Positions 5,491 through 32,351 of a stretch of 64,000 nucleotides of DNA are shown piece by piece. This DNA is from Candidatus Spongiisociaceae bacterium (GTDB lineage Bacteria; Actinomycetota; Acidimicrobiia; Spongiisociales; Spongiisociaceae), in the NCBI GenBank assembly GCA_965262915.1, contig OZ253564.1:1472001-1536000 (forward strand). The letters are read 5' to 3'. Every line of letters starts with the position of its first letter. Position 1 is the first letter of the stretch. Under the pieces are notes generated by a model. It had not been told where the DNA came from, searched no databases, and worked only from the letters and a program-made list of their open reading frames with translations. The translations under genes and the position numbers were made by a program.

Positions 5491-6751
5491 GTCGTCTCAA
5501 TGACCAACGCCGTGGGCATCGGAGTGTTCAAGATGTTTGTTTGGTTACGGCTGTTAATGCTTGGTGGGGTGTTTGCCAGCCGAGGGTCTGGCGTGGTCGG
5601 TTGTTTAGTTCTGCTGCTACCTGGTCGTACGCTCTCTGGTCGAGCTTGTAGAAGTTGGTTGACTTGGGGAAATACTGGCGGAGCAGCCCGTTGGTGTTCT
5701 CGTTGGTTCCGCGCTGCCAGGGACTGTACGGGTCGCAGAGGTAGACTTCGATACCGGCCTTCTCCCGGAGGGTCTTATGGCCGGCGATCTCCTTGCCCTG
5801 ATCCCACGTCAACGTTCTACGCAGAGTGGGCGGGAAGGCTTCGAGCTGGGCGGCTATCGCGTTGTTCAGTGCCTCAGCGGTGCGGCTCCCTGGGAGGGCA
5901 GCCAGTATCAGGTACCGGGTCTTGGGTTCCACCAGGGTAGCCACGGCGGTTACTCGGTTCCCCACCAGTAGATCTCCTTCCCAATGCCCAGCCTCCTCAC
6001 GGGTTTCAACTACGCCGGGTCGGGCTGAGATCAAGACAGGATCCCTGATCACACCCTGGCCTCTCCCTCGACGATGCCCTGTCCGTGGTGTTCGAGCAGC
6101 ACGGCGGGTGCGAAGGCATCGCCACAGTTCTTTGCGGAGCACACCACGATGATGGGCGTACACAGACCGGTAGATCGTCTCGTGGCATACCCACATCGAC
6201 GGGTCAGTCGGGTACTCGGTACGAAGCCACCCCGAGATCTGCTCGGGTGACCACCGAACTGCCAGTTTGCTCTCCACGAGGATCCGCAGGCGGCTGTTAG
6301 CGGCGAGTTTGGGCACCTTCGGACGTTTCGCTCGTTCACGGACTCGATCCTCAGCGTCAACAGCCCGATAGGCACCCCGCCCACCGTTGGTGTTCACTTC
6401 ACGACAGATCGTCGAGGGCGCGCGGTCAAGCCGCCTGGCTATCGACCGCAACGACTCACCCGCTACCAGCCCCCAAGATATCTCTTCTCGGTCCATCAGC
6501 GACATCCGAGCCGAAGACCAAGCAGGCGGCCCCACAGGCCGCCGGAACCCGTGACGGGCCACATAGTCCCGCACCGTGCTCAACGGCCGCCCGACCGACG
6601 CCGCTATCTCCCTCAAAGTCTGACCAGCCTCGTACCGATCCCAAATCTCTGTCTGTTCCACAGTATTCATATGACGGCCCATCACAACACCTCCTACCCA
6701 TCCCGACTGGTATTTCCAGACCTAGGTGTTGCGTTGACCCTCTGAGGCCAC
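5491..6751 (-). mobile_element. IS30 family insertion sequence (ends approximate)
   Basis: Contains an IS30 transposase. End motif TGTTGCGTTGACCCTCTGAGGCCAC near 6727-6751 has an imperfect counterpart near 5491. Confidence 0.75.
5528..6685 (-). CDS. IS30 family transposase
   Basis: WSPEQISG, GHWEGDL, TLTWDQGKE, PWQRGTNENTNGLLRQYFPK motifs. Confidence 0.96.
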   Translation of the reverse strand: MMGRHMNTVEQTEIWDRYEAGQTLREIAASVGRPLSTVRDYVARHGFRRPVGPPAWSSARMSLMDREEISWGLVAGESLRSIARRLDRAPSTICREVNTNGGRGAYRAVDAEDRVRERAKRPKVPKLAANSRLRILVESKLAVRWSPEQISGWLRTEYPTDPSMWVCHETIYRSVYAHHRGVLRKELWRCLRTRRAARTPRTGHRRGRGQGVIRDPVLISARPGVVETREEAGHWEGDLLVGNRVTAVATLVEPKTRYLILAALPGSRTAEALNNAIAAQLEAFPPTLRRTLTWDQGKEIAGHKTLREKAGIEVYLCDPYSPWQRGTNENTNGLLRQYFPKSTNFYKLDQRAYDQVAAELNNRPRQTLGWQTPHQALTAVTKQTS

Positions 6752-9849: not shown

Positions 9850-10678
9850 GGGCGTGTTCACCTAAAGTTACACTGATGTGATATCATTACGATATGACAA
9901 TAACACAAGAACAATACCAACTCATAGTAGACGTGTTCCCGAAACCCCGCGGTACCGTCAAGGTATCCAACCTCCAAGCCCTCAACGGCATCCTGTACGT
10001 ACTGGAGCACGGCTGCAAGTGGCGGGCGCTTCCCGAACGGTTCGGGAACTGGCACACCGTTTACATGCGGATGAGCCGCTGGGCGGCCAGCGGCGTCTTG
10101 GACCGGGTGTTCCAGCGTCTACAGCAGGAACAGCTCATCGACCTCGAAGTTCTGGGCCTGGACAGCACGTCGGTCAAGGTTCATCCCGACGGCTGTGGTG
10201 CTCTCCGAAAGCGGGGTCCCCAGGCCATCGGTCGCTCCCGGGGAGGGTTGAACACCAAGATCCACATGGTCGCGGCCAGCGCTTGTAGCGCCGTCTTATT
10301 CGCTCTTTCCCCAGGTCAGGACCATGATGCTCCCCATGGGCGGGAGCTCCTCAAAAAGATGGGCCCACGAAAAAAGGAGCAGGAAGGGGAGCAGCTAGAG
10401 CTGTTCCTGGTAGCGGACCGCGCCTATGAAGGGGACGAAACACGGCAACTGGCCGTCGCTCTGGGCTACACGCCGGTCATCCCACCCCGAAGCAACCGCC
10501 GCCACCCGTGGGACTACAACCGTCCGATATACAAGCGACGGAACGAGGTCGAACGGCTCTTCCGACGGCTCAAAGGCTACCGGCGTGTCTTCACCCGCTA
10601 CGACAAACTCGACGTGATGTTCCTAGCATTCATCACCCTCGCGCTCATACACGACACGCTCAGAAACGTAACACGCCC
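9850..10678 (+). mobile_element. IS5 family insertion sequence
   Basis: IRs GGGCGTGTT / AACACGCCC with a TA duplication (9848-49, 10679-80). Confidence 0.9.
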
Positions 10679-10706
10679 TAGGTTGATGTGGGTCACTTCG
10701 GCTTGA
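9894..10706 (+). CDS. IS5 family transposase
   Basis: NGILYVLEHGCKWRALPERFG, LDSTSVKVH, GRSRGGLNTKIH, ADRAY, YKRRNEVERLFRRLK, TRYDK motifs. Reads past the right IR. Confidence 0.95.
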   Translation: MTITQEQYQLIVDVFPKPRGTVKVSNLQALNGILYVLEHGCKWRALPERFGNWHTVYMRMSRWAASGVLDRVFQRLQQEQLIDLEVLGLDSTSVKVHPDGCGALRKRGPQAIGRSRGGLNTKIHMVAASACSAVLFALSPGQDHDAPHGRELLKKMGPRKKEQEGEQLELFLVADRAYEGDETRQLAVALGYTPVIPPRSNRRHPWDYNRPIYKRRNEVERLFRRLKGYRRVFTRYDKLDVMFLAFITLALIHDTLRNVTRPRLMWVTSA

Positions 10707-11851
10707 GCGAGCCGATACTCGATCTCGCGGCGTAGCGGTGCTCGACGATCCAGTTCTGCTTCGAGGACTGTTCCAAAGAGCCTGATTTCCCAGAGCGTGT
10801 CGCGTCGAAGCGCCACCATCAGCGCGTCGCCGGCGAGCTCCTCTAGGAGACGGTCGTGGCCATGTGCCTTCTGATGGAGAGCGAGGGCGTCTTGCACGAG
10901 GTATGCGAACTGCTGGCGCAAGGTGTCAACGATGTCCTCGGTGGCAGTAAACGAGAATGTCCAGACGTCGCCACTCTCGCGGAACGAATCTATGAACTCG
11001 AAAACGCGCGGCGTGTCGACGACGCCGGAGTAGTCGGCGTCGGGGTTGCTCCGCCACACACTCAACTGTGCAAGAACGTCGCTGTCGACGAAGACGTACG
11101 TGGGTACGCCCCGTGCTCGGGCTTCAAGAAATTCGAGGTTGGTGACGGACTTGTCGGTATCGGGGTCGACCGAGCCGTACCGCGCGCCGACAACCATCAC
11201 GAAGATATCGGCGTTCTCTCGGACGTTCCTCACGCTGTTGGTGACCGTCGTCTGGTTCGCGTCGATCGGGAACGAACCGTGCTCGGCCATCACGGCACGC
11301 CAACCGAGTCCCCCTATGAATTGGCGAAGCTGCGAGCGGAGATGGTTGAGGTCGTACATGGTCGAACTCACGAAGACATTTGGTGGTCGGTTCTTCACTG
11401 GCCACTCCGTTCAGTCGCAGGAGACGCCCTCGGGCACTTTAGGGCCGAATCCCGGATCACCACCCCGTCGGCGAGGACCCCGACGGGGAGCTGTGGCACT
11501 GACTTGTCCTGAGACGCTCGGCCGGCCTAACTCCCCCCTGAGCCCCGCCCAGCGGAGGGGTCCTCCGCTGGAGGGACTCAGGAGGTGGTAGGGAGGGGCG
11601 GCCTCTCCTGCCTCGCACCGAAAGGTGGCGCCGGGGGCCCCCACACCCAACGGATCCAGCGGCACCGGGGTCAGGAATCGATGCTGACCCCTCCGAACAT
11701 GCGGGAGCTTGTCTACTAGCCCGGTCTCCGCTGACCATCGTCGACCGGTATTAACCGTCGCATATTCGACCGTGGCTGGGGTGGTTTATGCACGACCTGG
11801 ACGGCCCTACCCCGAAACCGCCATCTACCTGGGGAAACACCGACGGGCGTG

Positions 11852-15159: not shown

Positions 15160-16119
15160 CTAACCAGTCAGTTCGTGACGTGTGATCACGGTCCGGCCCG
15201 ATGGTGTTTCCTTGCTTGCGGGTTGTCGGTCCGTTCCGATATCGATCGTGACCAAGAAGAATGTCTTGCCGTCGTGCATGATTCTGGGCGGGAATTCGCC
15301 GTCGGGTGAGTCTTCGGACGGCCAGACCAACTGATTGTTCGAACAGTTGAACACGACGAGATAGCCGATGTTCTGCTGGTAATCGTTGGCGTAACGCAGA
15401 ACTTGGTGGAACCCTTGACGCAGGCGGCTCTTGTCCCTGCCCCGAGCCGGGTCGAAGACCTTGGCTTCGAGGACCAGCGGATCGTCCGCGTCGTCGAGGC
15501 TGACGACATCCGCCCGCCCCGACGGCGAATCGGGCTGCGAGAAGGGGAAATCCACACCCCCGTCGAACAGCGCCTCCCGCAGCCGACGGTCGAGGTTCTT
15601 CTCACCTGACCCCGTGTCACGAAGATAGGCCTGATGTAGTTCTTGTTGGCTGAACCACTCGGCTTTCCGCTTGAACCGTTGCAGCAGGTACACGACGTTG
15701 CCTGTGTCGTCGATCCGGTCATCGAGATAGTTGACAACCGGATCGAGCACGGCCTCGTTCAGATCATTGAGCATTTCGTTGAACCTCGACTCGTGGCTGA
15801 ATGCACTTCCCCACGAGATGGCTGCTCGCTGTTCAGGGTCGTACGCACACTCCTTCAGGATCCCAAGGCAGAGTTTCGCCCTGGCCGTCTCCGAAGGCGG
15901 AAACGCGATAGAACGCGACTTGGCAGCAGCGTCCTTCCATTCCCCAAAATCCGCTTCGTCGCCGGCGTCCAGTGTGTGTAACAGGGCACGGAGATACGGG
16001 TTGTCATCGAGGAACTGCAGGAACAACTGCAGTTCTGTCTCATAGTGCCGATAGTCCACCATGTGTACACGGTTCCGGCGCTGCTGCAAGCGGACACGCA
16101 AGTCGAGTAGGTACCGCAT
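15160..16119 (-). CDS. Hypothetical protein with C-terminal PD-(D/E)XK nuclease-like domain
   Basis: AGGAG before ATG 16119. GEKNLD..SGRADVV...LVLEAKVFD...QVLRY pattern. Confidence 0.65.
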   Translation of the reverse strand: MRYLLDLRVRLQQRRNRVHMVDYRHYETELQLFLQFLDDNPYLRALLHTLDAGDEADFGEWKDAAAKSRSIAFPPSETARAKLCLGILKECAYDPEQRAAISWGSAFSHESRFNEMLNDLNEAVLDPVVNYLDDRIDDTGNVVYLLQRFKRKAEWFSQQELHQAYLRDTGSGEKNLDRRLREALFDGGVDFPFSQPDSPSGRADVVSLDDADDPLVLEAKVFDPARGRDKSRLRQGFHQVLRYANDYQQNIGYLVVFNCSNNQLVWPSEDSPDGEFPPRIMHDGKTFFLVTIDIGTDRQPASKETPSGRTVITRHELTG

Positions 16120-16129
16120 TCGTAAACTC

Positions 16130-16372
16130 CTAGATCGTGATGGTGATCGTCGTGTCCAGGTTCTTGATCTCGCGCTCGAGGTCCGTGAGAGCGTTGTGGA
16201 CACTCCGACGCGTTCTGTGACCGCTAGCCCGGTCGTCGGAGAACCGTATACGTCCTTTGCAGCATGGACAGAACACCGCATCCTCCAACTGTGCCAGCCG
16301 GAACCGAACATCTACCTCGTAGCCGCACCGCGGGCACGGGACTCTCAGAAAGGCGCGATCGAAGGGGTACAC
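16130..16372 (-). CDS. Small Zn-ribbon protein
   Basis: GGAGGTG RBS then GTG. CPRC..CPCC plus a helical C-terminus; ends 10 bp upstream of the nuclease-like gene. Confidence 0.62.
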   Translation of the reverse strand: MYPFDRAFLRVPCPRCGYEVDVRFRLAQLEDAVFCPCCKGRIRFSDDRASGHRTRRSVHNALTDLEREIKNLDTTITITI

Positions 16373-16584: not shown

Positions 16585-17104
16585 GGTCGTAATTCTACAA
16601 CCCGACCCTGACAAGGGTCGGTCCCGCCGTCTCACCCGAAATCACAGCAACCGACCGCGGGTGAGGAACGCATGTGATTTCTGCACCGTTCCGGATGTTC
16701 AGGTCAGGGCCCCCTGTCTGGGTTTTGTTGTGCGAACTGGTGTCCGCAGGGGTGTGCAGATCGTGGGCGGGTTCTCCCGGCCCCCAAATCGGCCTCTAGG
16801 CCTTCGGGTTGTGTTGGTTAACGTGCTGACGGGCGGGTCGTGGGTGTTTCCGCCCGAAACCCCTCGAGGGGGAGAGCCGCCACGGCGTGCTGAGAGAATC
16901 GGCTACCTGGCTGTCCGGCCGGCCGGCGGCAGCGGACTTCCCTTCCGCTGGGAGGGACTCAGGAGGCGACGGGGAGTAGGCAGACCCAGGCACCTCTCGG
17001 CACCGAGCGCTGCCGGCCTTCCCCTAGCCGCCGACCGCTACTAGGGAGCCCCCCTCTCTGAGAAACCCGAGATGAGGGTGGCCCTTGCTCTATTCTCCAG
17101 CGAG

Positions 17105-17923
17105 ATGCAACGGCCTCCTCTTTCTGTTCGACACAACAATGAGGCCCTCGAGGCATATCGGGAACTTCATGAGGGGATCCCAGATTGGATGATGCAGGGG
17201 GTGGGCGAATGGGCTGTCCAGGTCCTTAGCCACGCCAGTGATCTGCAGGCAGCTGAACAGTATTTTCGTATAGGACTCGATTGGGCAGCCATACAGAGTT
17301 CGCACGAAGAAGGTGTCGCGCAGCTCCTCGCATTTGAGGACCTCGATGTCTTGGACTATTGCCTGGGCATCTATTACCACCCCGACCACGCGGCGGAACT
17401 CCGAGAGATCCTGGATAGATCAGGGTCGGCGTGGACGGTGGGGACAGACGACGATGAAGGGCTGTGGTGTTTGAAACGGCGCGTGGACGTGACCGTTCTG
17501 GCGGCAGCAAACGAAGAAATGGAGCAACGGAGCAATGCCGCTGAGTACCTTCGGAGGGCTTGGCACCACGTCTACGGTCGGAACCCGAACCCCAGCACTG
17601 CTTACCACGACGCCGTTCGTGCAGTAGAGGCCGCCGCCCGTCCGGTCGTGACCCCCAACGATGACCGGGCCACATTGGGCAAGATGATCCTTGCCCTCGA
17701 GGACAAGCCAGGGAAGTGGGAAACGGTAATCGGCGATGTTGACACCGTGCGGAAGATGATGGCAACCATCTGGAAGTCACAGTCCGACCGGCACGGCACC
17801 GACGACACCACCAGGTCCCTCAACGTGTCACAGCCCGCAGCCGAAGCCGCAGTCCAGATGGCCGTAACGCTGGTGCAGCTGTTCCGTACCGGGGCGATCC
17901 GGAGGGAACACGACAGCCTCTAA
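17105..17923 (+). CDS. Abortive-infection (AbiJ/Abi_C)-like protein
   Basis: LHEGIPDW N-terminus; AYHDAVRAVEAA..ATLGKMI..SDRHG..AEAAVQMAVTLV HEPN-like C-terminus. Confidence 0.55.
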   Translation: MQRPPLSVRHNNEALEAYRELHEGIPDWMMQGVGEWAVQVLSHASDLQAAEQYFRIGLDWAAIQSSHEEGVAQLLAFEDLDVLDYCLGIYYHPDHAAELREILDRSGSAWTVGTDDDEGLWCLKRRVDVTVLAAANEEMEQRSNAAEYLRRAWHHVYGRNPNPSTAYHDAVRAVEAAARPVVTPNDDRATLGKMILALEDKPGKWETVIGDVDTVRKMMATIWKSQSDRHGTDDTTRSLNVSQPAAEAAVQMAVTLVQLFRTGAIRREHDSL

Positions 17924-18090
17924 CAGTCGTGACCCTCTAGAACGCAACGGGTCGTCTGTTGTCTGGTCCGCCCGAGGCAGAGGTGCTGCAACAACTGGAA
18001 AGGGTCAGGCTGTCGCTTAGCCTTCTTCTATCTCCGGGCCCCTGCGGATGGGTCTGGGTCAGAGGTTGGTGGCTAGCATCCCGCTGGCCT

Positions 18091-18805
18091 ATGAGCGATG
18101 ACCACGAAACGACCGAAGACCAAGCGGCAGGCGGCGACACGGTTTCCTATGAAGGGTACGTGTACGTGGCGACCAATCCTGCTATACCGAACATGGTCAA
18201 GATCGGCAGCACGACGCAACACGATCCCCGAAGCCGTATCACTGCGCTGTTCACGACCAGTGTGGCCCCTGCCGTTCGAACTGGAGTACGCGGCAGCAAT
18301 AGCGGATGATCCCGCCAGGGTTGAACGGGCGCTGCACAAGGCTTTCACACCTCAACGGCTGCATCCAAGGCGTGAGTTCTTCAAGGTCGAGCCGTACCAG
18401 GTGATCGCGATCCTCAGGCTGCTCAACGTTGCTGACGTCACTGAGCAGGCCAAGTCCGATGTTGAGGCCGAGAAATCACAGGAGGACCGGGAAGCCCTTG
18501 CGCGAGCCAGACGACCAGTGCTCAATTTCGCCGACCTAGGGCTGCCAGAAGGATCGATCCTTACGTATCTGAGAGACGAGAGAGTCAAAGCCGAGATAGT
18601 CGACGGGCGGCGTGTGCGACTTATCGAACTGCCCGAAAACAAGTACCCCGCAGTCGTGTTGGACGGCGAACCTTCGTTCCTTTCGCCGCTCTCAAGAGAC
18701 CTTCTCGGGGTTGCACGTTATGTGGGCCCCACCCGGTACTGGCGTGTTGAGGACGGACGGTCACTCCTTGAGATCTACGACGAGAAGCACGGTCCAAGGG
18801 AGTAG
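18091..18805 (+). pseudogene. GIY-YIG (T5orf172-type) nuclease, frameshifted at ~18265
   Basis: GYVYVATNPAIPNMVKIGST..TTSV | PLPFELEYA..VERALH..RREFF split across two frames. Confidence 0.8.
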
Positions 18806-19577
18806 CACACCTCTCTGCCTACCTACGCCGGCTAGACCAGCACCCCGTCAACGCCTCGGCTGCTCAAGCTCTTCGAGGGCCAACGTGGCTATGAAAACAT
18901 CGGGGGAGGAACCCTGTACGCAGCACAGGGACGTGGGTGAAATACTGTCAGTTCGGTCCCGCTACAACGAACGCCCACGGTCGAGGAACATCGTGAGCGT
19001 GCGGCTCCCGGCGGGGCTTCTTCTCTGGAGTCTGTCCACGAGAGCACTCTCGCGGACTCGATTTCTCTCCCTTCCGCTGGGGGCTCGGCCGGCCGCCGAC
19101 AGCGGTTACCGGTCCGGTGGTCTCACTAGCCTTAGCGGTTCCGTTTGGGTGGGTGTCGGTTGGGGGAGTGGAGGCGGCAGTGGTCGGCCGGGTTGTAGAT
19201 GGATAGGCGTGCTGTGCAGCTGTCGGTGGCGCAGCGGCGGCCGGGGGGATATGTGGGTGGTGGTCGGCCTTTGGGGGGTAGGACTCTGGTCATAGGGGGT
19301 TGACGGTACCCGGGAGCGGTTTCCGCTGACGGCCGGCGGCATCGGAGTATCCCTCCGTCGGGGGGCTGAGGGATCAGCCGGGCGGGCTGTTGGGGAGCTT
19401 CCGTCTCAGGTCTGCGCCGGGTGACTCGGGCGTTAGGGAGCGGGGGAACGGAGAGTCTGTAGCCTATCGTTGACTAGCGCTGTGTGGTGTATATTCAAAC
19501 GTGGGTGGGCGGGTTTATGCACGGGGCTGGCCGGCTGTTGCCGAAACCGGCTTTTACACCAACGCGATAATATAACG

Positions 19578-19943
19578 AACATCGAAACAGCCGCCCGCAA
19601 GCTGAGGCAGGGCGCGCAGGTGCGGGAAGGTCTCATCGTGGAAGAGGTTGAGGAGTTCGACTACGACCGTAGCCTCGGCACCAACGCCGAGGAGTTGGCC
19701 CTGTCTGTCCAGTTCACGGTCGGTGTGGTTGTGAGGCGTGCTCGGGTGCTTCGTACCCGAGCCCGGTTCGATGAGTGGGCGGCCACTATCCGGGTGGATA
19801 CAGATCCTGAGTTGGTGGACCGTGAACAGTTGCTGACCTGGTTGGACATTGGGGGGCGTCGTATCGGGGTGGGGAATTGGCGGCCGGAGAAGTCAGGCCA
19901 GTTCGGACGGTTCGAGGTCAAAAACATACAAACCATCTCATAG
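19578..19943 (+). pseudogene. Phage-type RAMP/Cas7-like protein, C-terminal ~120 aa (N-terminus apparently missing)
   Basis: AARKLRQG..VVVRRARVLRTRARFDEW..L..GGRRIGVGNWRPEKSGQFGRFEV, a Gly-rich C-terminal loop. The upstream part of ORF 19470 overlaps a non-coding repeat. Confidence 0.6.
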
Positions 19944-19954
19944 CGAAGACAGAC

Positions 19955-20098
19955 AGCGTGGCGTGGCTTCGCCTGGCAGGGCTGGGCTCGGCGCCGCACC
20001 GCAGAGCGTGGCTCCGCACCGCACCGAAACCGGACAGGGCCGGGGACAGTGACACACCCTGGGAAACCCGGGTTGGCCACACCCCCCGCCCCGTCCGG
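19955..20098 (+). ncRNA. Putative guide-like RNA: 14 phased (G/C/A)GC-NN pentamers plus 3' hairpin
   Basis: AGCGT GGCGT GGCTT CGCCT GGCAG GGCTG GGCTC GGCGC CGCAC CGCAG AGCGT GGCTC CGCAC CGCAC (19955-20024), followed by a stem-loop at 20030-20098. Transcription is not shown. Confidence 0.55.
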
Positions 20099-20449
20099 TC
20101 AACAGCCCTGAAGTGAACCGTACCGGGTTTCCCAGAGAGTGTTTTACTTGAGTCCAGCTAGCTGGACTCGGTTCTGCTCACGATGGTAGTTGGCCTCCTT
20201 TTCTGCTGGTGGGATGTCTCCGATGGGTTCGAGGAGCCGGCGGTGGTTGAACCAGTCGACGTATTCGAGGGTGGCGTACTCGACTTGGTCGAGGTCCTTC
20301 CACGGAGCGCGTTTGTGGATGAGTTCTGTCTTGTATAGGCCGATGACGGATTCGGCGAGGGCGTTGTCGTAGGAATCCCCAACCGAGCCGACTGATGGTT
20401 CGATGCCGGCTTCGGTGAGCCGGTTCGTGTAGCGAATGGACAGATATTG

Positions 20450-22859
<2,410 letters not shown>

Positions 22860-23129
22860 CTAATCGAGTCTCCGGAAAACCCGGTGCGGTTCAAAGAACC
22901 CTTTGACATCCCGCCGGCGGTGTCACGGAAGAACAACTCCCCCAAGTCTCAGACACCCCGGCGGCATTCGGCTGTCTAGCAACGTAGAGGCTGACCCAGC
23001 CCCACCGAAAGCTGATAGGCCTCCCAACTCCGACCTAGCAAGACAGGCACAGGCCCCGGCCACCCTTGGCACGTTCAATCCGCCATGTGTGGTTGACTGA
23101 TCTCATCCACCAGCATCTGCTAACAGTCC

Positions 23130-23883
23130 CGTGGGACGTATGGAGCACCGAGGGTGCACGCTGAGCTGAGGTTGGGCTATGGAATCAGGGTCGGGCACAA
23201 CGCGGCGGGGGATGCTCATGAGACGAGCCGGCCTGCAGGCCTGAGCGGGAGCCGAGGCCCCAGACGGCGGCGAATCAGACCGGTGGATACCCCAGCGGAC
23301 CTGGTCGAGAGGAACTTCGTCCGCCATCAGCCGGACCAATTATGGGTGGCCGACGTGACCGAGCATCCAACCCGAGAAGGCAGGTCTACTGCGCGGTCGT
23401 CCTCGACGTGTTCAGCCGCCGCGTCGTCGGCTGGTCTATCGACCACTCCGCCACCGCTGGGCCGCTCACCTCCGCCCTGGGTATGGCTATCCAAAACCGC
23501 CAACCGGGCTCGGAGACGGTGATCCATTCAGACCAGGGCACCCCCTACACCTCCTGGGCGTTCACGGACCGGGCGCAGCAGTCCGGGCTCGTTCCCTCGA
23601 TCGGTGTCAGTTGGGGACTGTTTCGATAACGCGTTGATTGAGTCGTTCTGGGCTCGGATGCAGGTCGAACTGTTGGACCGCCGGCGATGGCGCACCCGTA
23701 TCGAGTTGGCCAACGTGATCTTCGAATACCTCGAGATCTTCCACAACCGGCAACGACGCCACACCGCCCTAGGAATACGTTCCCCGGTCGAATACGAAAG
23801 AATCCACTGGCGCGCCGCTGATCCAAGTGAACTGACTCCACAAAACCCGGTCACCATCAGTCCACGAAAGCGGGGCAACTCCA
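23130..23883 (+). pseudogene. Degraded IS3 family OrfB with right IR
   Basis: Frameshifted DLVERNF..LWVADVTEHPT, YCAVVLDVFSRR..HSDQG, GDCFDNALIESFW. End sequence GTCCACGAAAGCGGGGCAACTCCA. Confidence 0.85.
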
Positions 23884-24101
23884 GAACCCTCGGAGGCCGG
23901 CACCCGGCCTGAAGGTTGATGCGAGGCTTCGTCCGGCACGTCCCGACTTCGTTATGCGGGCAAGCCTCGAGAGACTCAAGATCCCGGCTTTGCGGGCAAC
24001 GTTCGACTGGCCTTGCCAAACAGTGGCTGCACTCGAAGCTCGTGGTGGGTCACAGAAGATCGAAGAGGAGCAACGAACTGACGGTTACCCTTCCAGCCGG
24101 T

Positions 24102-26483
24102 ATGACAGAACCCTCTTCCACCCTTGGCTGGCACGGGTACCGGGTGGTTGGTGTCCTGTTCATGGCGGTACCAACCGCGGCCGGCCTTGCATGGTGGTTT
24201 GCCGAGACCCATAGCGGACCTCTACTTCGGGACGCTCTGACCGCTGCCCTAGTGCCTGTCGGATTCATCATCGCGTTCGGATTCGGATATGCGGGAAACA
24301 CGTTCTCCAGACGTCTTGCCCTGTATGGGTACGAAAGGGAGACACACCCGGCGATTCTCGTTCTTCTGTTCTTTGGCCTCGCTGTTGGAACAGTGGCTCT
24401 GATTCTTGTCTATCTGGCGCTCGGAGACAGAGACAACTTGTGCTTGGGTCCCTGTCGTCTCGCCGTCCCGCTTCCATGGATAAACGCGTACTGGCAGCCG
24501 CTACTGGTGGCGCATTCCACGATCGGCCAGTTAGCTACGGCAGGAGTAGGGATGGTGCTTGCGGGGTCAGTTCAGGTGCTCTTCGGTCTACTTCATCCAC
24601 GTCGGCTCGATGTGTACTCGCACAACCTCCTCCTCGGACGCCGCTTCGCTGCCCGGCTCCTTGACAGCTTGGTCCTCTTGGCGTCGACCTTCTGCATGAT
24701 CGAGTATGGCCCCGAGTTGCTCGTCGGCCGCTTCGGGCTGTCATGGACGGCCGCTCGAGTCACTCTCAGCTGTCTGCTCTTGGCGCTGCCCTTCTTATAC
24801 GAGGTCACTCCCCAGTTCGGCTGGAAGTGGTGGCTCGGGTTGCGGCTGGTAGCCCCTCCCGACGGTAGACCGGTCGCTATAGGGCGGTTAGCTGTACGGG
24901 CGCTCGTCACGTCACTTGTGTTCTCTCTCGGTATCGACGCGGCAGTTGTCCTTTGGACCATCGAAGGTTCGTATTTATTCTGGGTCATGGTCGGGCGGAT
25001 GCTGCTCCTGGTCGCTCTGATCCCAGCGGTGGTGCATCCACACGGCCAGGGATTCCATGACGTACTGCTGGGTACCCAAGTCCGCGGCGATCTCGATGGA
25101 GACACGGAACCGGGCCAGTCTTCCGAGTCCGAAGGGCTACGGCTCCGCTCCGCGGATTTCACTGCCGACGAGGACGATCCGTTCGCGAACGACCTACTGG
25201 ACCGTCAACCCCAGGTCGAGTATCTCTCCGCTGTGATCACGGCAACGGATAGCCCACTTGTGGTGATGGTTGACGCGCCGTGGGGTAGCGGCAAAACCGC
25301 ATTCCTAAGGATGTGCGCTGCCCACCTGCGACACCAAGGCGTTACTGTGGCGGAGTTCAACGCCTGGACCGACCAACATACCCAGCAGCCGCTCCTTGAC
25401 ATGGTCGGTGCGCTCTCGGCCCGCCTTCCAAAAGGGGCTGCCACCCGTATCGGGTCGGCTGCCTCGGGCCTGCTCACCCTGCTCACCACCGACCATCCCA
25501 GCCCAAGGATTGATTCGTGGGATGACCACAACCGGGCCGTGAGATCGTTCACCGAATCGTTAGCGGAAGTAGCGGCCGATCGCGGGCGTCTGGTCGTGAT
25601 CGTGGATGAGCTCGACCGTTGCCGACCTGAATACACACTCGGGATACTGGCGGACATCCACCATCTCTTCTCAGTAGACGGGGTCACGGTTCTGCTCGGC
25701 GTTAACCGTCGCCAACTATGTCACGCTGTGCAAGCCGTGTACGGACTCAGCTTCGATGCAGACTCGTATCTTAGGCGATTCGTCGATATCCCTATTAACT
25801 TGCCCTCCCCGAACCGCACAGAACTTGAAGCTTTCCTCGACCATCTGTACGCCGAATCCCGTCTTCACGGCCGGACTTCGCGTGGACTGGCCAAGTGGCC
25901 AGCTACGAGAGCCGTGCTCCGCCTGGTTATCGAGCTCAAGTCGTGTTCATTACGGGATCTGCAGCAGGCTGCCCATATCTACGCTCTAGCGCTGGTCAAG
26001 CGGGTTCCCGATGATCATCCGTACGATGTGTGGCAACTTTCGGTCGCAGCGATGGTCGTGTTGCGCGTCGCGGACCGGGACGCCTACGACCGCTTTGTAG
26101 TTGGCCAATCCGACAGCTTCGAGGCTCTGACCTCCGCTTACGCTGCTCTCGGGCCGGAACCACATCTGAGGCCTACGGACACGCTGCCCCATGGAACCCG
26201 AAGGGATCACTTCGCTGCCGCCTTGATCAACATCGGGTCGCGCGACGACTGGTGCGATACCATCAGCGGTGCTGAAGATGCGTTCGTAGAGCGGTACCGG
26301 CGCGCCCACGCTGCTCTCCCACAATCTATCGAGGGTTCTCCACGGGATTCGACACAGGCTGCCCGCGATGTCCTCAAGATTCTCTGCCATATAAGGAGTT
26401 GCTATCAGCCACTACCTGTCTGGCGCACCTTGGAAGCAGACAGACTGGCCAACTTGATCGACCTCGCTGTCGATCTCCGATGA
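24102..26483 (+). CDS. Multi-TM RDD-domain / KAP-family P-loop NTPase fusion
   Basis: RRFAARLLD..KWWLGLRLV..QGFHD (RDD); DAPWGSGKT, FNAW, VIVDELDRC, YLRRFVD (KAP). Start uncertain; ORF is open from 23916. Confidence 0.8.
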   Translation: MTEPSSTLGWHGYRVVGVLFMAVPTAAGLAWWFAETHSGPLLRDALTAALVPVGFIIAFGFGYAGNTFSRRLALYGYERETHPAILVLLFFGLAVGTVALILVYLALGDRDNLCLGPCRLAVPLPWINAYWQPLLVAHSTIGQLATAGVGMVLAGSVQVLFGLLHPRRLDVYSHNLLLGRRFAARLLDSLVLLASTFCMIEYGPELLVGRFGLSWTAARVTLSCLLLALPFLYEVTPQFGWKWWLGLRLVAPPDGRPVAIGRLAVRALVTSLVFSLGIDAAVVLWTIEGSYLFWVMVGRMLLLVALIPAVVHPHGQGFHDVLLGTQVRGDLDGDTEPGQSSESEGLRLRSADFTADEDDPFANDLLDRQPQVEYLSAVITATDSPLVVMVDAPWGSGKTAFLRMCAAHLRHQGVTVAEFNAWTDQHTQQPLLDMVGALSARLPKGAATRIGSAASGLLTLLTTDHPSPRIDSWDDHNRAVRSFTESLAEVAADRGRLVVIVDELDRCRPEYTLGILADIHHLFSVDGVTVLLGVNRRQLCHAVQAVYGLSFDADSYLRRFVDIPINLPSPNRTELEAFLDHLYAESRLHGRTSRGLAKWPATRAVLRLVIELKSCSLRDLQQAAHIYALALVKRVPDDHPYDVWQLSVAAMVVLRVADRDAYDRFVVGQSDSFEALTSAYAALGPEPHLRPTDTLPHGTRRDHFAAALINIGSRDDWCDTISGAEDAFVERYRRAHAALPQSIEGSPRDSTQAARDVLKILCHIRSCYQPLPVWRTLEADRLANLIDLAVDLR

Positions 26484-27432: not shown

Positions 27433-27869
27433 CTGGGTCTCCGTAACGTCTTGGACAGTTTCTCGACGTTTCAGGATCACTCATAGTCCCTGGTCAGAGG
27501 CTATTTAGTTCGAACCATCACGGACTTCAGGTAGGGTCGGAGAGCCGCACGCTCGTGTAAGCTCACGTTTCTTGATTCCTCGTGATGTTTCCGATAGTTG
27601 CTCTTCTGGGTAATTTCGGTGATCGCCATCACATCAACCCGATCCCCCGACACGAACCACCTCCCCGTGGGCTACCGTCTGCTAAGGGGTTCTGGCAAGA
27701 AGCGGCGGACAATACACTCACGGTGCTGGAAGCTCAGTCAAAGCTCCTATAAGGTCACATCCGCTTCGAGCCAACCCCGCCCCCCCGGACCGGAGGGACA
27801 GGCCGACAGATCCCCAGAAAGGCGCTCACACGCCAAATTTCGATTGGGTGGAGTTCCTCCCATGTGCTG

Positions 27870-27990
27870 GACACTTGGTTCACGCGACCGTGGCTCCTAT
27901 GGTTCGCCCCGGGTGTGCGCCGAGCTACGCCGACAAGGGCTGGTCGTGAACCACAAGCGGGTGGAACGGCTGATGAAACGCCGCCGTGAT
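27870..27990 (+). pseudogene. IS3 OrfB fragment
   Basis: GSYGSPRVCAELRRQGLVVNHKRVERLMK. Confidence 0.7.
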
Positions 27991-29126
27991 CGGGAACCAG
28001 CCACCGAACGATGGGAGGACAACTACTACCATCACACACCGGAGTCTGCCTAGATGGCCCGGATCTCGTCCACCAGAGCGGCCTCCGCCATCTGAGCAGG
28101 ACCCGGCTCCCGTCGCTTCTTGTAGGCATAATACGCGGAGGGTGACACCCCCACCACAGAACACACCAGTCTGACGGGGAACCCTTCGACCTTCTGGTCA
28201 TCGACGAAGCGATGGAGCGTCACTCGATCGACTCCCTCACCCAGAAGGACACAGTTCGTCTTAAGAGTTCACGTTCCATCCGCAGCCGAGCGTTCTCCCG
28301 CTCCAACTGCGTAGCCGTTCCCGCTCACCCCGGTTAATCTCATCCTGACGTAGCCAGTTGCCCAAGTCGAGTCACAAATTCCCAACTCCTTGGCAACCTA
28401 GCGGATCGGTTCGCTTGACCTGCGGACGATCTCCACAGCATCTCGTTTGAACTCATCCGAGAACTTCCGTCTCGGTCGTTACCTCCCAACAGGACTCCTT
28501 CCCAGCGCGCACTTCCAACTGTCGGAGACAAAGCACGCTCACTGTGGAAGTATCCGGCCACCGGGGGAACTCCAGAGCATTTTGGTCGTTCGTGACTGTG
28601 TGACTTATCTAGCGTGCCTCAGGGAAAGGGCACCTCGACAGGTGACTCCGGGGCTCTACTCCGAGCCGCCATACAGAATCGGTCGTCTGGTATTACATCG
28701 ACGTGGACGTCTCTGCCTTCGGGCTGGTGTTCGTGGTCGCTCAGCGGGAACCGACCAGGCACCCTTATCAGGTCTGCTGTCGTGAACCACCAACTATGTT
28801 AGTAACCGGATCCAATCCACTGGGCAACTACCCAACCCATTACTGACCAGCATATGTCCGTACAGCTCCCTCTGGTCCCTCCTCCGTCGTTTGTCACCCG
28901 TCCCTCGACTCGTGCGTTATCATGGGGGCCCGCTGTTTCCGACGGGTTCCGTTATTACCAGACAGCTATCGCACCGCATCTGCCCGTATCTTGCGATGTA
29001 CAGGACGGCCACACGTAGTTCGGTGGTCCACCCAAGTGCCTCTACACCGGTGCGATACGACGTGTCCGCAGTGGCCGTACCAGCAACCTAACTCGGGAGA
29101 ACCGCCCGATGGGGCAATGAGTTCCT

Positions 29127-30469: not shown

Positions 30470-31163
<694 letters not shown>

Positions 31164-31167
31164 TAGT

Positions 31168-31968
31168 GTAGGGTCCGGGGCGCCCCTCCTGCTTTTCAGC
31201 TGGTGGGTTTCCCCGGCCCGCCCTCCGAACCGGACGTGCAACTTCGGGTGCATCCGGCTCTCCATGTGTTCATGCCACTGGTGGTTCAGCCTGTGTCTGC
31301 ATCACACGTACCCGCCGCCCAGCCTCTCCGAGGTCAGGCCACGGTGCGCCGGTATTCACCAGCGACCTCCGCGATCAGCAGTTCGGCTACCAACACACTG
31401 GACCCCTTCGCCATGTGACCGGCTTTCCCGGCCTCGGACTACTACGGGTCCTCCGCCCCATCCCACCGGCATCAGCCGGCAACAAGCCTTCCCGCCGACC
31501 GACAAGACGCCGGCCGGTGAGGGCACCGGGGGGATGGTTCCCACGTTCACTTTCCAACCGTTCGACAGGGTCGGCGCCCAGCTATGCCCCTGCAACATCG
31601 CCACGGCTACGCCGCAGGCCCACACCGTGGCCTCCCGGTCGGCGATATCAACCGACCAAAGAGTCACCGCACACAACAATTGCTGTGCGAGTGTGCGCTG
31701 CTACGCGGCCCTGATCCGCCAGGTTCGAGCCGCTGGGTTGTCTTGAGGAGCTTTCAGACGCTGGTTCCTCACGTACGCCTTTCTGTCTTGCTTGCCGGAC
31801 CCGGACCATCTGGCAGTACTGGTCCGTCCCATCGTTGTCAGGGCTGCTTCCCACCCAAACCCCCCGTTCCACAGGGTCCAGGCTGCCCTCAGCTTCACGC
31901 GCACGCTGCAACGAGCACGCAGCGGTGTCCTTTCACCACCGCACGGTTAGAAACGCCTCGTGGCGCTC
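31168..31968 (-). ncRNA. Group II intron lacking its RT ORF (~800 nt)
   Basis: 5' end GAGCGCCACGAGGCG; domain V GAGCCGGATGCACCCGAAGTTGCACGTCCGGTTC; domain VI ending ..CCCGGACCCTAC. Only VNTGAPWPDLGEA and ..HMESRM ORF stubs remain. Confidence 0.85.
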
Positions 31969-32351
31969 GATATCCGACACCCAGATTCGGTCCGGTCCGC
32001 TTGCGGTGAACTCTCTGCGTACCAGGTCGGGCGCCGCGGCCCGTTCGGGATTCGCCTTGGTGGTGGCAACCCTGCGGCGGCGGTGAACCCCCTGGATAGG
32101 GCCTGGCGCATGAGGCGGGCTACCCGTTTGCGGCCGACTGAGACACCGTCGGCTGCCAGCTCGGCGTGGACACGGGGCGCCCCATAGGTGCCCCGCGACC
32201 GGCTGTGGATATCGACGATCCGGTCCCGGAGTGCCCGATCAGCTTGTTCCCGGGCGGATGGGCGACGGCTGAGCCACGCGTAGTAGCCGCTGGCCGAGCA
32301 CACCCAGGAGCTCACACATGCGCCGCACCGAATGAGAGGCCTGGTTAGCTT

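Follow-up and report, generated by a model that had tools for sequence, protein, structure and literature searches.

The DNA considered here, called the window below, is a stretch of 64,000 nucleotides from the chromosome of a Candidatus Spongiisociaceae bacterium (contig OZ253564.1, positions 1,472,001 to 1,536,000). Between positions 19955 and 20099 of this window, a tract of short repeat units is directly followed by a GC-rich hairpin, and immediately upstream of the tract lies what remains of a protein-coding gene on the same strand. In the reading that we develop here, tract and hairpin very probably make up, by descent, the guide RNA (vrRNA) gene of a VIPR (Viral Interference Programmable Repeat) system. 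Such systems, which are derived from phages and recognize DNA by means of an RNA guide, were described in 2026 by one group (10.64898/2026.04.26.720920 [PMC13142463], 10.64898/2026.04.26.720927, and 10.64898/2026.10.15.759431). The published systems combine a minimal RAMP protein of ~20 kD, Vipr, with vrRNAs of 9 to 16 YNNGG (GGY/NN) repeats, which end in an invariable structured 3' tail, and in most cases also with a single accessory gene, vap (10.64898/2026.04.26.720920). The model system is that of Escherichia phage SUSP1 (PDB 36pp), the vrRNAs of which are ~100 nt long and have been sequenced and pulled down with Vipr (10.64898/2026.04.26.720920).

The pentamer tract, its 3' hairpin, and the adjoining gene

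The putative guide region (positions 19955 to 20025, plus strand, i.e., the vipr strand) has 14 units in the register x-G-C-N-N. Counted from the GC that opens each of them, the 5-nt units follow each other head to tail from 19956 to 20025, with phase kept throughout. The dinucleotides at the variable positions (GT GT TT CT AG TG TC GC AC AG GT TC AC AC), for which the listing in the initial annotation of this stretch was reproduced exactly, amount to 28 informative bases. At the first position of the unit, G occurs 7 times, C 5 times, and A twice; G2 and C3 are each present in all 14 units. When the window was searched for period-5 runs of at least six units with any fixed dinucleotide, this tract was the only one retrieved. 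With a GC dinucleotide frequency of 0.086 in the window, 8e-11 runs of this kind would be expected by chance, and the initial estimate of roughly 0.1 per unit, raised to the 14th power, was therefore a fair one. Tandem Repeats Finder called no period-5 array, its sole report being a 25-nt, two-copy repeat with 80% matches at 19976 to 20026. The earlier view that the tract is not a slippage microsatellite likewise stands, since 10 different units are found among the 14 and since variation is confined to three of the five positions, with G2 and C3 invariant. Nor does the tract look like a set of CRISPR direct repeats, which measure ~25 to 40 nt and alternate with unique spacers: its period is 5, and the only longer repetition consists of the imperfect two-copy 25-nt repeat and short chance pairs. 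One such pair, the 10-nt sequence CCGAAACCGG at 19541 and 20024, is at chance level (~0.4 expected per 900 nt).

The canonical GGY is not found in every unit, G1 being present in only 7 of the 14. All seven departures from GGY sit at G1 and none at G2 or Y3, a distribution that random placement would produce with a probability of (1/3)^7, or ~5e-4. Departures at G1 alone would thus be unlikely under random decay, and they fit the variant YNNNG, which the report that defines seven VIPR types names, without going into detail, alongside the variant repeats NNNGG and NNNNG (10.64898/2026.04.26.720920).

What the initial annotation missed is that the adjoining gene encodes the partner protein of such an RNA and that this gene is truncated. 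The 3' remnant of vipr (19576 to 19943, plus strand) comprises codons ~78 to 199 and a stop codon at 19941 to 19943, and its frame is open over 122 codons, with neither an internal stop nor a frameshift. A HMMER search of a protein library with the remnant open reading frame (ORF) gave 1829 matches at an E value of ≤0.001; full-length members of the family are ~200 amino acids (aa) long, and the remnant covers only residues ~79 to 199 of them. For residues 1 to 78, tblastn with three full-length relatives found no counterpart anywhere in the window. A profile built from 51 full-length members matched chain D of PDB entry 36pp ("SUSP1 Vipr protein") with an E value of 6e-42, and the fragment alone matched the same chain (36pp_D) with an E value of 6.6e-8, aligning the glycine-rich loop (GxGxWRP...GRF), or G-loop. 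On the basis of these profile comparisons, we assign the fragment at 19576 to 19943 to the Vipr family. Pfam, NCBIfam, and PADLOC returned nothing useful for the ORF and six full-length relatives, PHROGs places the family in phrog_4652 ("unknown function"), and blastn in distant mode with positions 19300 to 20110 found no match in plasmid and phage collections. A codon-position GC signal typical of coding DNA is present from ~19540 on and fades after ~19900.

A leader of 12 nt (19944 to 19955) connects the vipr stop codon to the first unit, which starts 13 nt past the stop. On its other side, the tract is followed by the 3' tail of the putative vrRNA (20026 to 20099, plus strand), in which GAA precedes a 71-nt nested, GC-rich hairpin at 20029 to 20099. 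Positions 20026 to 20100 fold with -44.5 kcal/mol (z = -4.17), and none of 200 shuffled sequences was as stable. With outer stems of 7, 4, and 4 pairs and an inner 6-bp stem closed by an AAA loop, the fold bears out the nested stem-loop that had been proposed directly 3' of the tract. This tail would serve as a handle and/or terminator. Consensus scans for promoters and terminators over 19200 to 20200 yielded no sites.

Tracts, tails, and accessory genes of related loci

For comparison, 80 loci from public genomes were located with an alignment of 11 proteins (83 loci when phage loci are included), and tracts were called as at least nine G[CT]NNN units with no more than one bad unit. As a control, the caller was run on phage SUSP1. 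It placed one tract upstream of vipr-vap and three tracts downstream, all on the vipr strand, which is exactly the published set of four; on the window, it found one tract. At 62 of the 80 related loci, a tract on the same strand starts between -8 and +86 nt from the vipr stop codon, a number that rises to 68 when the 1.2 kb upstream is also counted, whereas the background outside ±1.5 kb of vipr amounts to five tracts in 659,188 nt. A single tract is present at 33 of the 80 loci and two to seven tracts are present at 35, with 14 units, as in the window, being the commonest length (22 of 147 tracts). Over 149 tracts and 2127 units, G1 is conserved in 91% and G2 in 97% of units and Y3 is C in 83% and T in 16%, while all four bases occur at either N position. 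The closest relative (L004) shares 79.5% amino acid identity with the vipr fragment, and its DNA can be aligned with that of the window from 19576 on, across the tract and on into the tail. Between these two tracts, the scaffold G and C are identical at 28 of 28 positions, whereas the NN bases agree at 7 of 28, which is the chance level.

Most of the relatives come from uncultured bacteria (Dehalococcoidia, Caldilineaceae, Binatia, Vicinamibacterales, and similar metagenome-assembled genomes [MAGs]), and most are MAG records with sponge-related names. Among the phage loci, whose vipr homologs are distant ones, Gordonia phage Trine carries a 12-unit tract just past its vipr homolog and Mycobacterium phage LittleE carries five tracts flanking both sides of a two-gene cassette; no tract was found by the vipr homolog of prophiBWHA-1. 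In Trine, the tract is preceded by a hairpin resembling a tRNA T-arm. Two annotated coding sequences, gp40 of Trine (L002, 4591 to 5394) and gp35 of LittleE (L001, 3557 to 3946), lie across GGYNN tracts and are unlikely to be genes. Some single genomes hold two to five VIPR loci (L067/L074/L075/L078/L079, L056/L060, and L044/L051), with some tract positions nearly identical; five of the loci belong to a single Vicinamibacterales isolate, and two lie on the same Poriferisocius chromosome.

In SUSP1 Vipr, G1 is recognized by H17 and D177 and G2 by R138 and W178, while Y3 occupies a pocket that excludes purines, and a D177A substitution abolishes silencing (10.64898/2026.04.26.720927). The G-loop of the window remnant (19890 to 19910) reads GVGNWRP, i.e., with N in the place of SUSP1 D177. 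The same loop reads GxGDWRP in 75 of the 80 relatives, with N in one and A in another at the D position and three without a match to the motif. We considered this N as a cause of the relaxed G1 and rejected it, since the relative with N (L077) has G1 in 95% and the relative with A (L065) in 96% of its units.

Clustering of neighboring ORFs in the relatives showed that the third-largest cluster is formed by an ORF lying directly upstream of vipr, at 61 of 80 loci. It encodes ~100 aa with an invariant C-x-x-C ... H-H ... C-x-x-C-H pattern, and a profile from 29 of the 62 clustered ORFs (those starting at or before locus position 5699) matched the HNH domains of ZRANB3 (3e-6), the HNH-bearing Cascade protein CasD (6e-6), and IscB (2e-4); the Pfam HNH model itself gave weak matches, in only 2 of 20 submitted ORFs. 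This ORF runs into vipr in the +1 frame, spanning approximately -300 to +255 nt from the vipr start (for instance, 5660 to 6259 in L004; loci L004 to L083). Correspondingly, +1-frame stops number 0.0062 per codon in vipr codons 1 to 75, with none at 57 of 79 loci, versus 0.0346 per codon in codons 81 to 185; for the +2 frame, the stop rate in vipr is 0.028 per codon. These frequencies point to a conserved overlap of the accessory gene with vipr by ~230 to 255 nt, to which none of the four occurrences of "overlap" in the main text of 10.64898/2026.04.26.720920 refers. With this gene, the relatives look like the nuclease-bearing, defense-island class of VIPR systems, and, as far as the clade can be placed from the text of that report and its legend to Fig. 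S21, it probably represents the HNH-bearing type, type III.

The tail of L004 forms a similar nested hairpin, with an outer stem around a 5-bp stem and a 3-nt loop, and is identical to the window tail at 15 of the first 20 nt and at 19 of the remaining 54. GAA also opens 16 of 63 terminal tails of the relatives, the terminal tracts of those relatives that were folded lead into GC-rich hairpins, and the relatives' tails are slightly more structured than the background (Mann-Whitney P = 0.006). Their sequences differ across the clade: blastn-short with the window tail against the 83 loci found no match at any relative's vrRNA tail, and none better than an E value of 0.059 overall, and the tail of another relative, L028, gave no convincing alignment to that of the window. 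Rfam searches of 12 relatives' loci detected neither a hammerhead nor any other family within the arrays.

The deletion, the insertion sequences, and the surrounding island

At the DNA level, homology with more than 30 relatives sets in abruptly at 19576 to 19581, and the alignments with L004 and L028 both fail to the left of ~19576. Upstream of this point, positions 19470 to 19575 (plus strand) hold an unrelated sequence that is fused in frame to the vipr remnant, as part of a mechanical ORF starting from TTG at 19470, and that shows no similarity to any Vipr N terminus or to the HNH gene upstream of vipr in the relatives. Judging from these alignments, we take 19575/19576 to be the right edge of a deletion or rearrangement that removed the HNH gene together with vipr codons 1 to ~77, or the 5' third of vipr. 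In L004, the corresponding position is 6229/6230, ~30 nt before the end of its HNH ORF. The putative vrRNA gene is complete in the window, from its leader over the 14 units to the tail.

On the other side, an IS3-family element (20115 to 22893, minus strand) begins 15 nt 3' of the hairpin and hence outside the vrRNA, in agreement with the insertion about 15 bp further on that the initial annotation had described. Its ends were derived from the sequence and from a comparison with L028, which carries an uninterrupted copy of the element with 83 to 85% identity, and a 3-bp target duplication, AAG, borders it on both sides (20112 to 20114 and 22894 to 22896). Its ORFs match the Pfam families HTH_Tnp_1, HTH_21, rve, and rve_3 and contain an ALIL frameshift pseudoknot (22447 to 22563), and an IS30-like element with Pfam HTH_38 and rve domains is nested inside it at ~20450 to 21910. 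The inner tail hairpin (20052 to 20071) is complementary, at 18 of 20 positions, to 20123 to 20142, just inside the left end of the IS3 element. Some IS3-family elements prefer sites like their own ends; the complementarity could be a reason for the landing of IS3 at this site, or could be due to chance.

The region between 5.5 and 32.7 kb of the window is a variable island, rich in insertion sequences (IS30-like, IS4/5, IS3, and IS3 fragments) and flanked by housekeeping genes on both sides. Further insertion sequences and fragments are found at 5531 to 6685 (minus strand), 9894 to 10703 (plus), 27598 to 28050 (plus), 30774 to 31163 (plus), and 31950 to 32315 (minus). Approximately 1 kb past the IS3 element, an 855-aa protein with RDD and KAP-family P-loop NTPase domains is encoded (23916 to 26483, plus strand), which matches PADLOC model PDC-S20 (5.8e-68) and, weakly, QatA and PifA. 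Other candidate defense genes lie at 18098 to 18805 and 17072 to 17923 (both plus strand) and at 15160 to 16311 and 10601 to 11398 (both minus strand); these comprise a GIY-YIG/T5orf172 protein (PDC-S57, 1.2e-35), weak matches to PDC-S32 and PDC-M14B, and a DUF4062 protein. No tRNA was found in the window.

A probable vrRNA gene by descent, and what it may still do

We consider the tract to be a vrRNA gene because a vipr remnant ends 13 nt upstream of it, because 62 of the 80 relatives share this arrangement, and because the scaffold is fixed whereas NN is at chance level between relatives. The likeness to published VIPR systems extends to the pentamers themselves (a fixed scaffold plus two hypervariable bases, with 14 units falling within the range of 9 to 16), to the position of the tract beside vipr and on its strand, to what is probably a structured 3' tail, and to the G-loop that the Vipr fragment retains and that aligns with SUSP1 Vipr. 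The initial suggestion of an RNA with a split 28-nt spacer and a 3' handle or terminator, made from the raw sequence, is thus supported by the published vrRNA architecture, by the adjoining vipr gene, and by the relatives; the length of ~145 nt given with it is a guess. Compared with SUSP1, the window has an SGC scaffold in place of GGY and a long nested hairpin in place of the pseudoknot, and the accessory gene of the relatives is a ~100-aa HNH gene upstream of vipr, whereas vap1 of SUSP1 lies downstream; the host replicon is also an island in a cellular chromosome rather than a phage, with vipr shortened and no accessory gene left. With the nuclease-bearing VIPR types (III and V), the relatives share the HNH-motif gene beside vipr (61 of 80) and, in many cases (33 of 80), a single vrRNA, although the 35 of 80 with two to seven tracts depart from that pattern. 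The window copy adds to this likeness by its location in an island rich in insertion sequences, together with the candidate defense genes for the KAP NTPase (PDC-S20) and the GIY-YIG protein (PDC-S57). Taking these features together, the locus appears to be a decayed nuclease-type VIPR locus, from which the proteins are gone within the window while the vrRNA gene is intact.

In an intact system, according to the published work on SUSP1, one Vipr protomer occupies each 5-nt unit (10.64898/2026.04.26.720927), resulting in a helical filament in which each GGY is flipped out and held by protein and the next two bases are offered to double-stranded DNA. According to the "1-nt skip rule," NN pairs with double-stranded DNA in such a way that every third base is skipped (10.64898/2026.04.26.720920); 14 NN pairs would accordingly present 28 informative bases over a 41-bp footprint, with the 3' tail capping the filament. 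For nuclease-bearing types found in defense islands, destruction of the target rather than repression is predicted (10.64898/2026.04.26.720920). Like class 1 CRISPR effectors, VIPR has RAMP-fold protomers that polymerize on a guide and a thumb that periodically breaks the guide-target duplex (10.64898/2026.04.26.720927), and, like a crRNA, its RNA combines a variable guide part with a constant handle. VIPR differs in its period of 5 with three of five bases sequestered, compared with a period of 6 with one base flipped out for Cas7, and, as stated by the VIPR authors, in having neither direct repeats of 25 to 40 nt nor spacer acquisition genes nor a protospacer-adjacent motif. Recovery of VIPR arrays from period-5 entropy, including arrays with noncanonical trinucleotide scaffolds, has also been reported (10.64898/2026.10.21.760802).

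Several observations weigh against this reading of the locus. A profile of the HNH accessory gene found no match in the six-frame translation of the window at an E value of ≤1, an absence that we attribute to the deletion with its edge at 19575/19576, and tblastn found no second vipr within the 64 kb. Of the relatives, 12 of 80 lack a tract recognized by the caller. The low G1 content is itself unusual, as only 3 of 149 tracts in the relatives have G1 in 50% or less of their units, two of these being possibly misstranded, and perturbation of GGY abolished silencing in SUSP1 (10.64898/2026.04.26.720920). Apart from the ALIL pseudoknot of the IS3 element, Rfam reported nothing for positions 18000 to 24000 at an E value of ≤1. 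Of the two analyses that had been proposed for the hairpin, folding gave the strong result described above, whereas the search for covariation revealed a compensatory change in none of nine consensus pairs, on the basis of just two homologous sequences (the window and L004).

The remaining points against it concern targets. A search with gapped dinucleotides, spaced by 0 to 3 nt and compared with shuffled guides, had been proposed in the initial annotation and is also the test used by the VIPR authors themselves, whose rule is a gap of 1 nt. We applied it to both strands of the window and the 83 loci (1,032,378 bases) and observed no excess of matches. With a 1-nt skip, the best match of the window guide covered 20 of 28 bases (71%), below the published cutoff for natural targets of at least 80% of NN positions, and was equaled by 28 of 100 shuffled guides; matches did not improve with a skip of 0 or of 2, and a skip of 3 found only the tract itself. 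When 133 guides (that of the window and 132 from relatives) were used, matches at skips of 0, 1, and 2 did not exceed those of shuffled guides in the same 1.03 Mb, and those with a skip of 3 were leftover tract-to-tract matches that had escaped masking. Given the lack of enrichment for the 133 guides, the 1-nt skip rule was therefore not reproduced for this clade. For VIPR systems, targets are to be expected among phage genomes.

Explanations that do without a guide RNA fare poorly. If the tract were a degenerate pentanucleotide microsatellite or a local duplication without function, followed by the terminator of the upstream gene, one could account for the identity of some adjacent units (GCGTG twice and GCACC twice), for terminator-like hairpins after many of the relatives' tracts, and for the 25-nt repeat, which suggests that duplication contributed to tract growth. 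Such an origin is nonetheless highly improbable, with two positions fixed in 14 of 14 units next to two that use three or four bases each, with 62 of 80 relatives, of 50 to 80% protein identity, showing the same pattern but unrelated NN in the equivalent position, with only five background tracts in 659 kb, and with the SUSP1 vrRNAs having been recovered as RNAs bound to Vipr (10.64898/2026.04.26.720920). Similarly, mechanical ORFs do cross the tract (19849 to 20052 and 19877 to 20116 on the plus strand and 19661 to 20080 on the minus strand), and the phage annotations gp40 and gp35 treat such tracts as coding. However, conservation follows a period of 5 and not 3, the coding signal in the vipr frame fades after ~19900, ORFs that open just past the vipr stop and extend across the tracts form clusters at no more than 10 of 80 loci, and NN identity between close relatives is at chance level, which makes it hardly credible that the tract encodes protein or belongs to a conserved coding sequence. 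A third idea starts from the resemblance of a 5-nt register with a fixed dinucleotide to the binding sites of multisubunit RNA-binding proteins such as TRAP, which binds GAG/UAG repeats. The tract might then be the 3' untranslated region site of another ring- or filament-forming protein that regulates the upstream gene without any guiding. We regard this as very improbable, as hypervariable NN would be needless in a purely regulatory site and as the neighboring gene itself encodes a filament protein that takes up one unit per protomer (10.64898/2026.04.26.720927).

A different question, which presupposes descent from a vrRNA gene, is whether the RNA still acts. Since no partner protein is encoded in the window, the RNA, if transcribed, could act only with Vipr from elsewhere in the genome; it would be an orphan ("solo") vrRNA or else a relic of recent origin. 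Solo vrRNAs left behind by vipr-vap deletions have been described from 346 phages without vipr and also from satellites (10.64898/2026.10.15.759431), and the window resembles these in that its vrRNA stays after a deletion that hit both vipr and vap. It differs from them in retaining a 366-nt vipr stump and in its location in a bacterial chromosome, whereas the published deletions remove both genes fully, are inherited across many phages, and have known targets. That selection has retained the RNA since the loss of vap and vipr, and that it is loaded by a Vipr of the same genome or of an incoming phage, serving either as an additional guide or as a decoy by which foreign VIPR machinery is diverted, would agree with the completeness of the gene from leader to tail, with both the deletion and the IS3 element stopping just outside it. 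The confinement of all seven GGY departures to G1, which argues against free decay, would agree as well, and several relatives' genomes with more than one VIPR locus make a Vipr acting in trans plausible. On the other hand, the visible 64 kb of this genome holds no other vipr, the promoter may have gone with the deletion, G1 relaxation is rare in the relatives, and the guide has no target above the level of shuffled guides in 1.03 Mb; moreover, with the vipr fragment still open over 122 codons, the deletion may be so recent that decay is not yet visible. On balance, present-day activity of this vrRNA seems doubtful, as does a working solo vrRNA of this kind, although neither is far-fetched. 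The more specific proposal of a chromosomal solo vrRNA under selection, with a relaxed S-G-C scaffold and loaded in trans as an extra guide or decoy, is unlikely.

As a vrRNA gene by descent, the element belongs to a kind that has already been described, such that the finding is correct but no longer a discovery; the guide logic, in which specificity resides in dinucleotides on a pentamer scaffold, had nevertheless been read from the raw sequence alone, having been published, as VIPR, only in 2026. The window provides a natural example of VIPR decay, in which the guide was spared while the nuclease gene was lost along with the 5' third of vipr, with an insertion sequence adjoining the guide and a scaffold that strictly keeps only G2 and C3. 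It also leads to a clade of at least 80 relatives, mostly from uncultured bacteria, in which vipr is paired with a small upstream HNH gene in an apparently overlapping frame. If the orphan RNA is active, solo vrRNAs operate in cellular chromosomes, too. In that case, the "guns for hire" idea would extend from phages and satellites of the Enterobacteriaceae to the chromosomes of uncultured bacteria, and G1 of the GGY scaffold would be dispensable in this clade.

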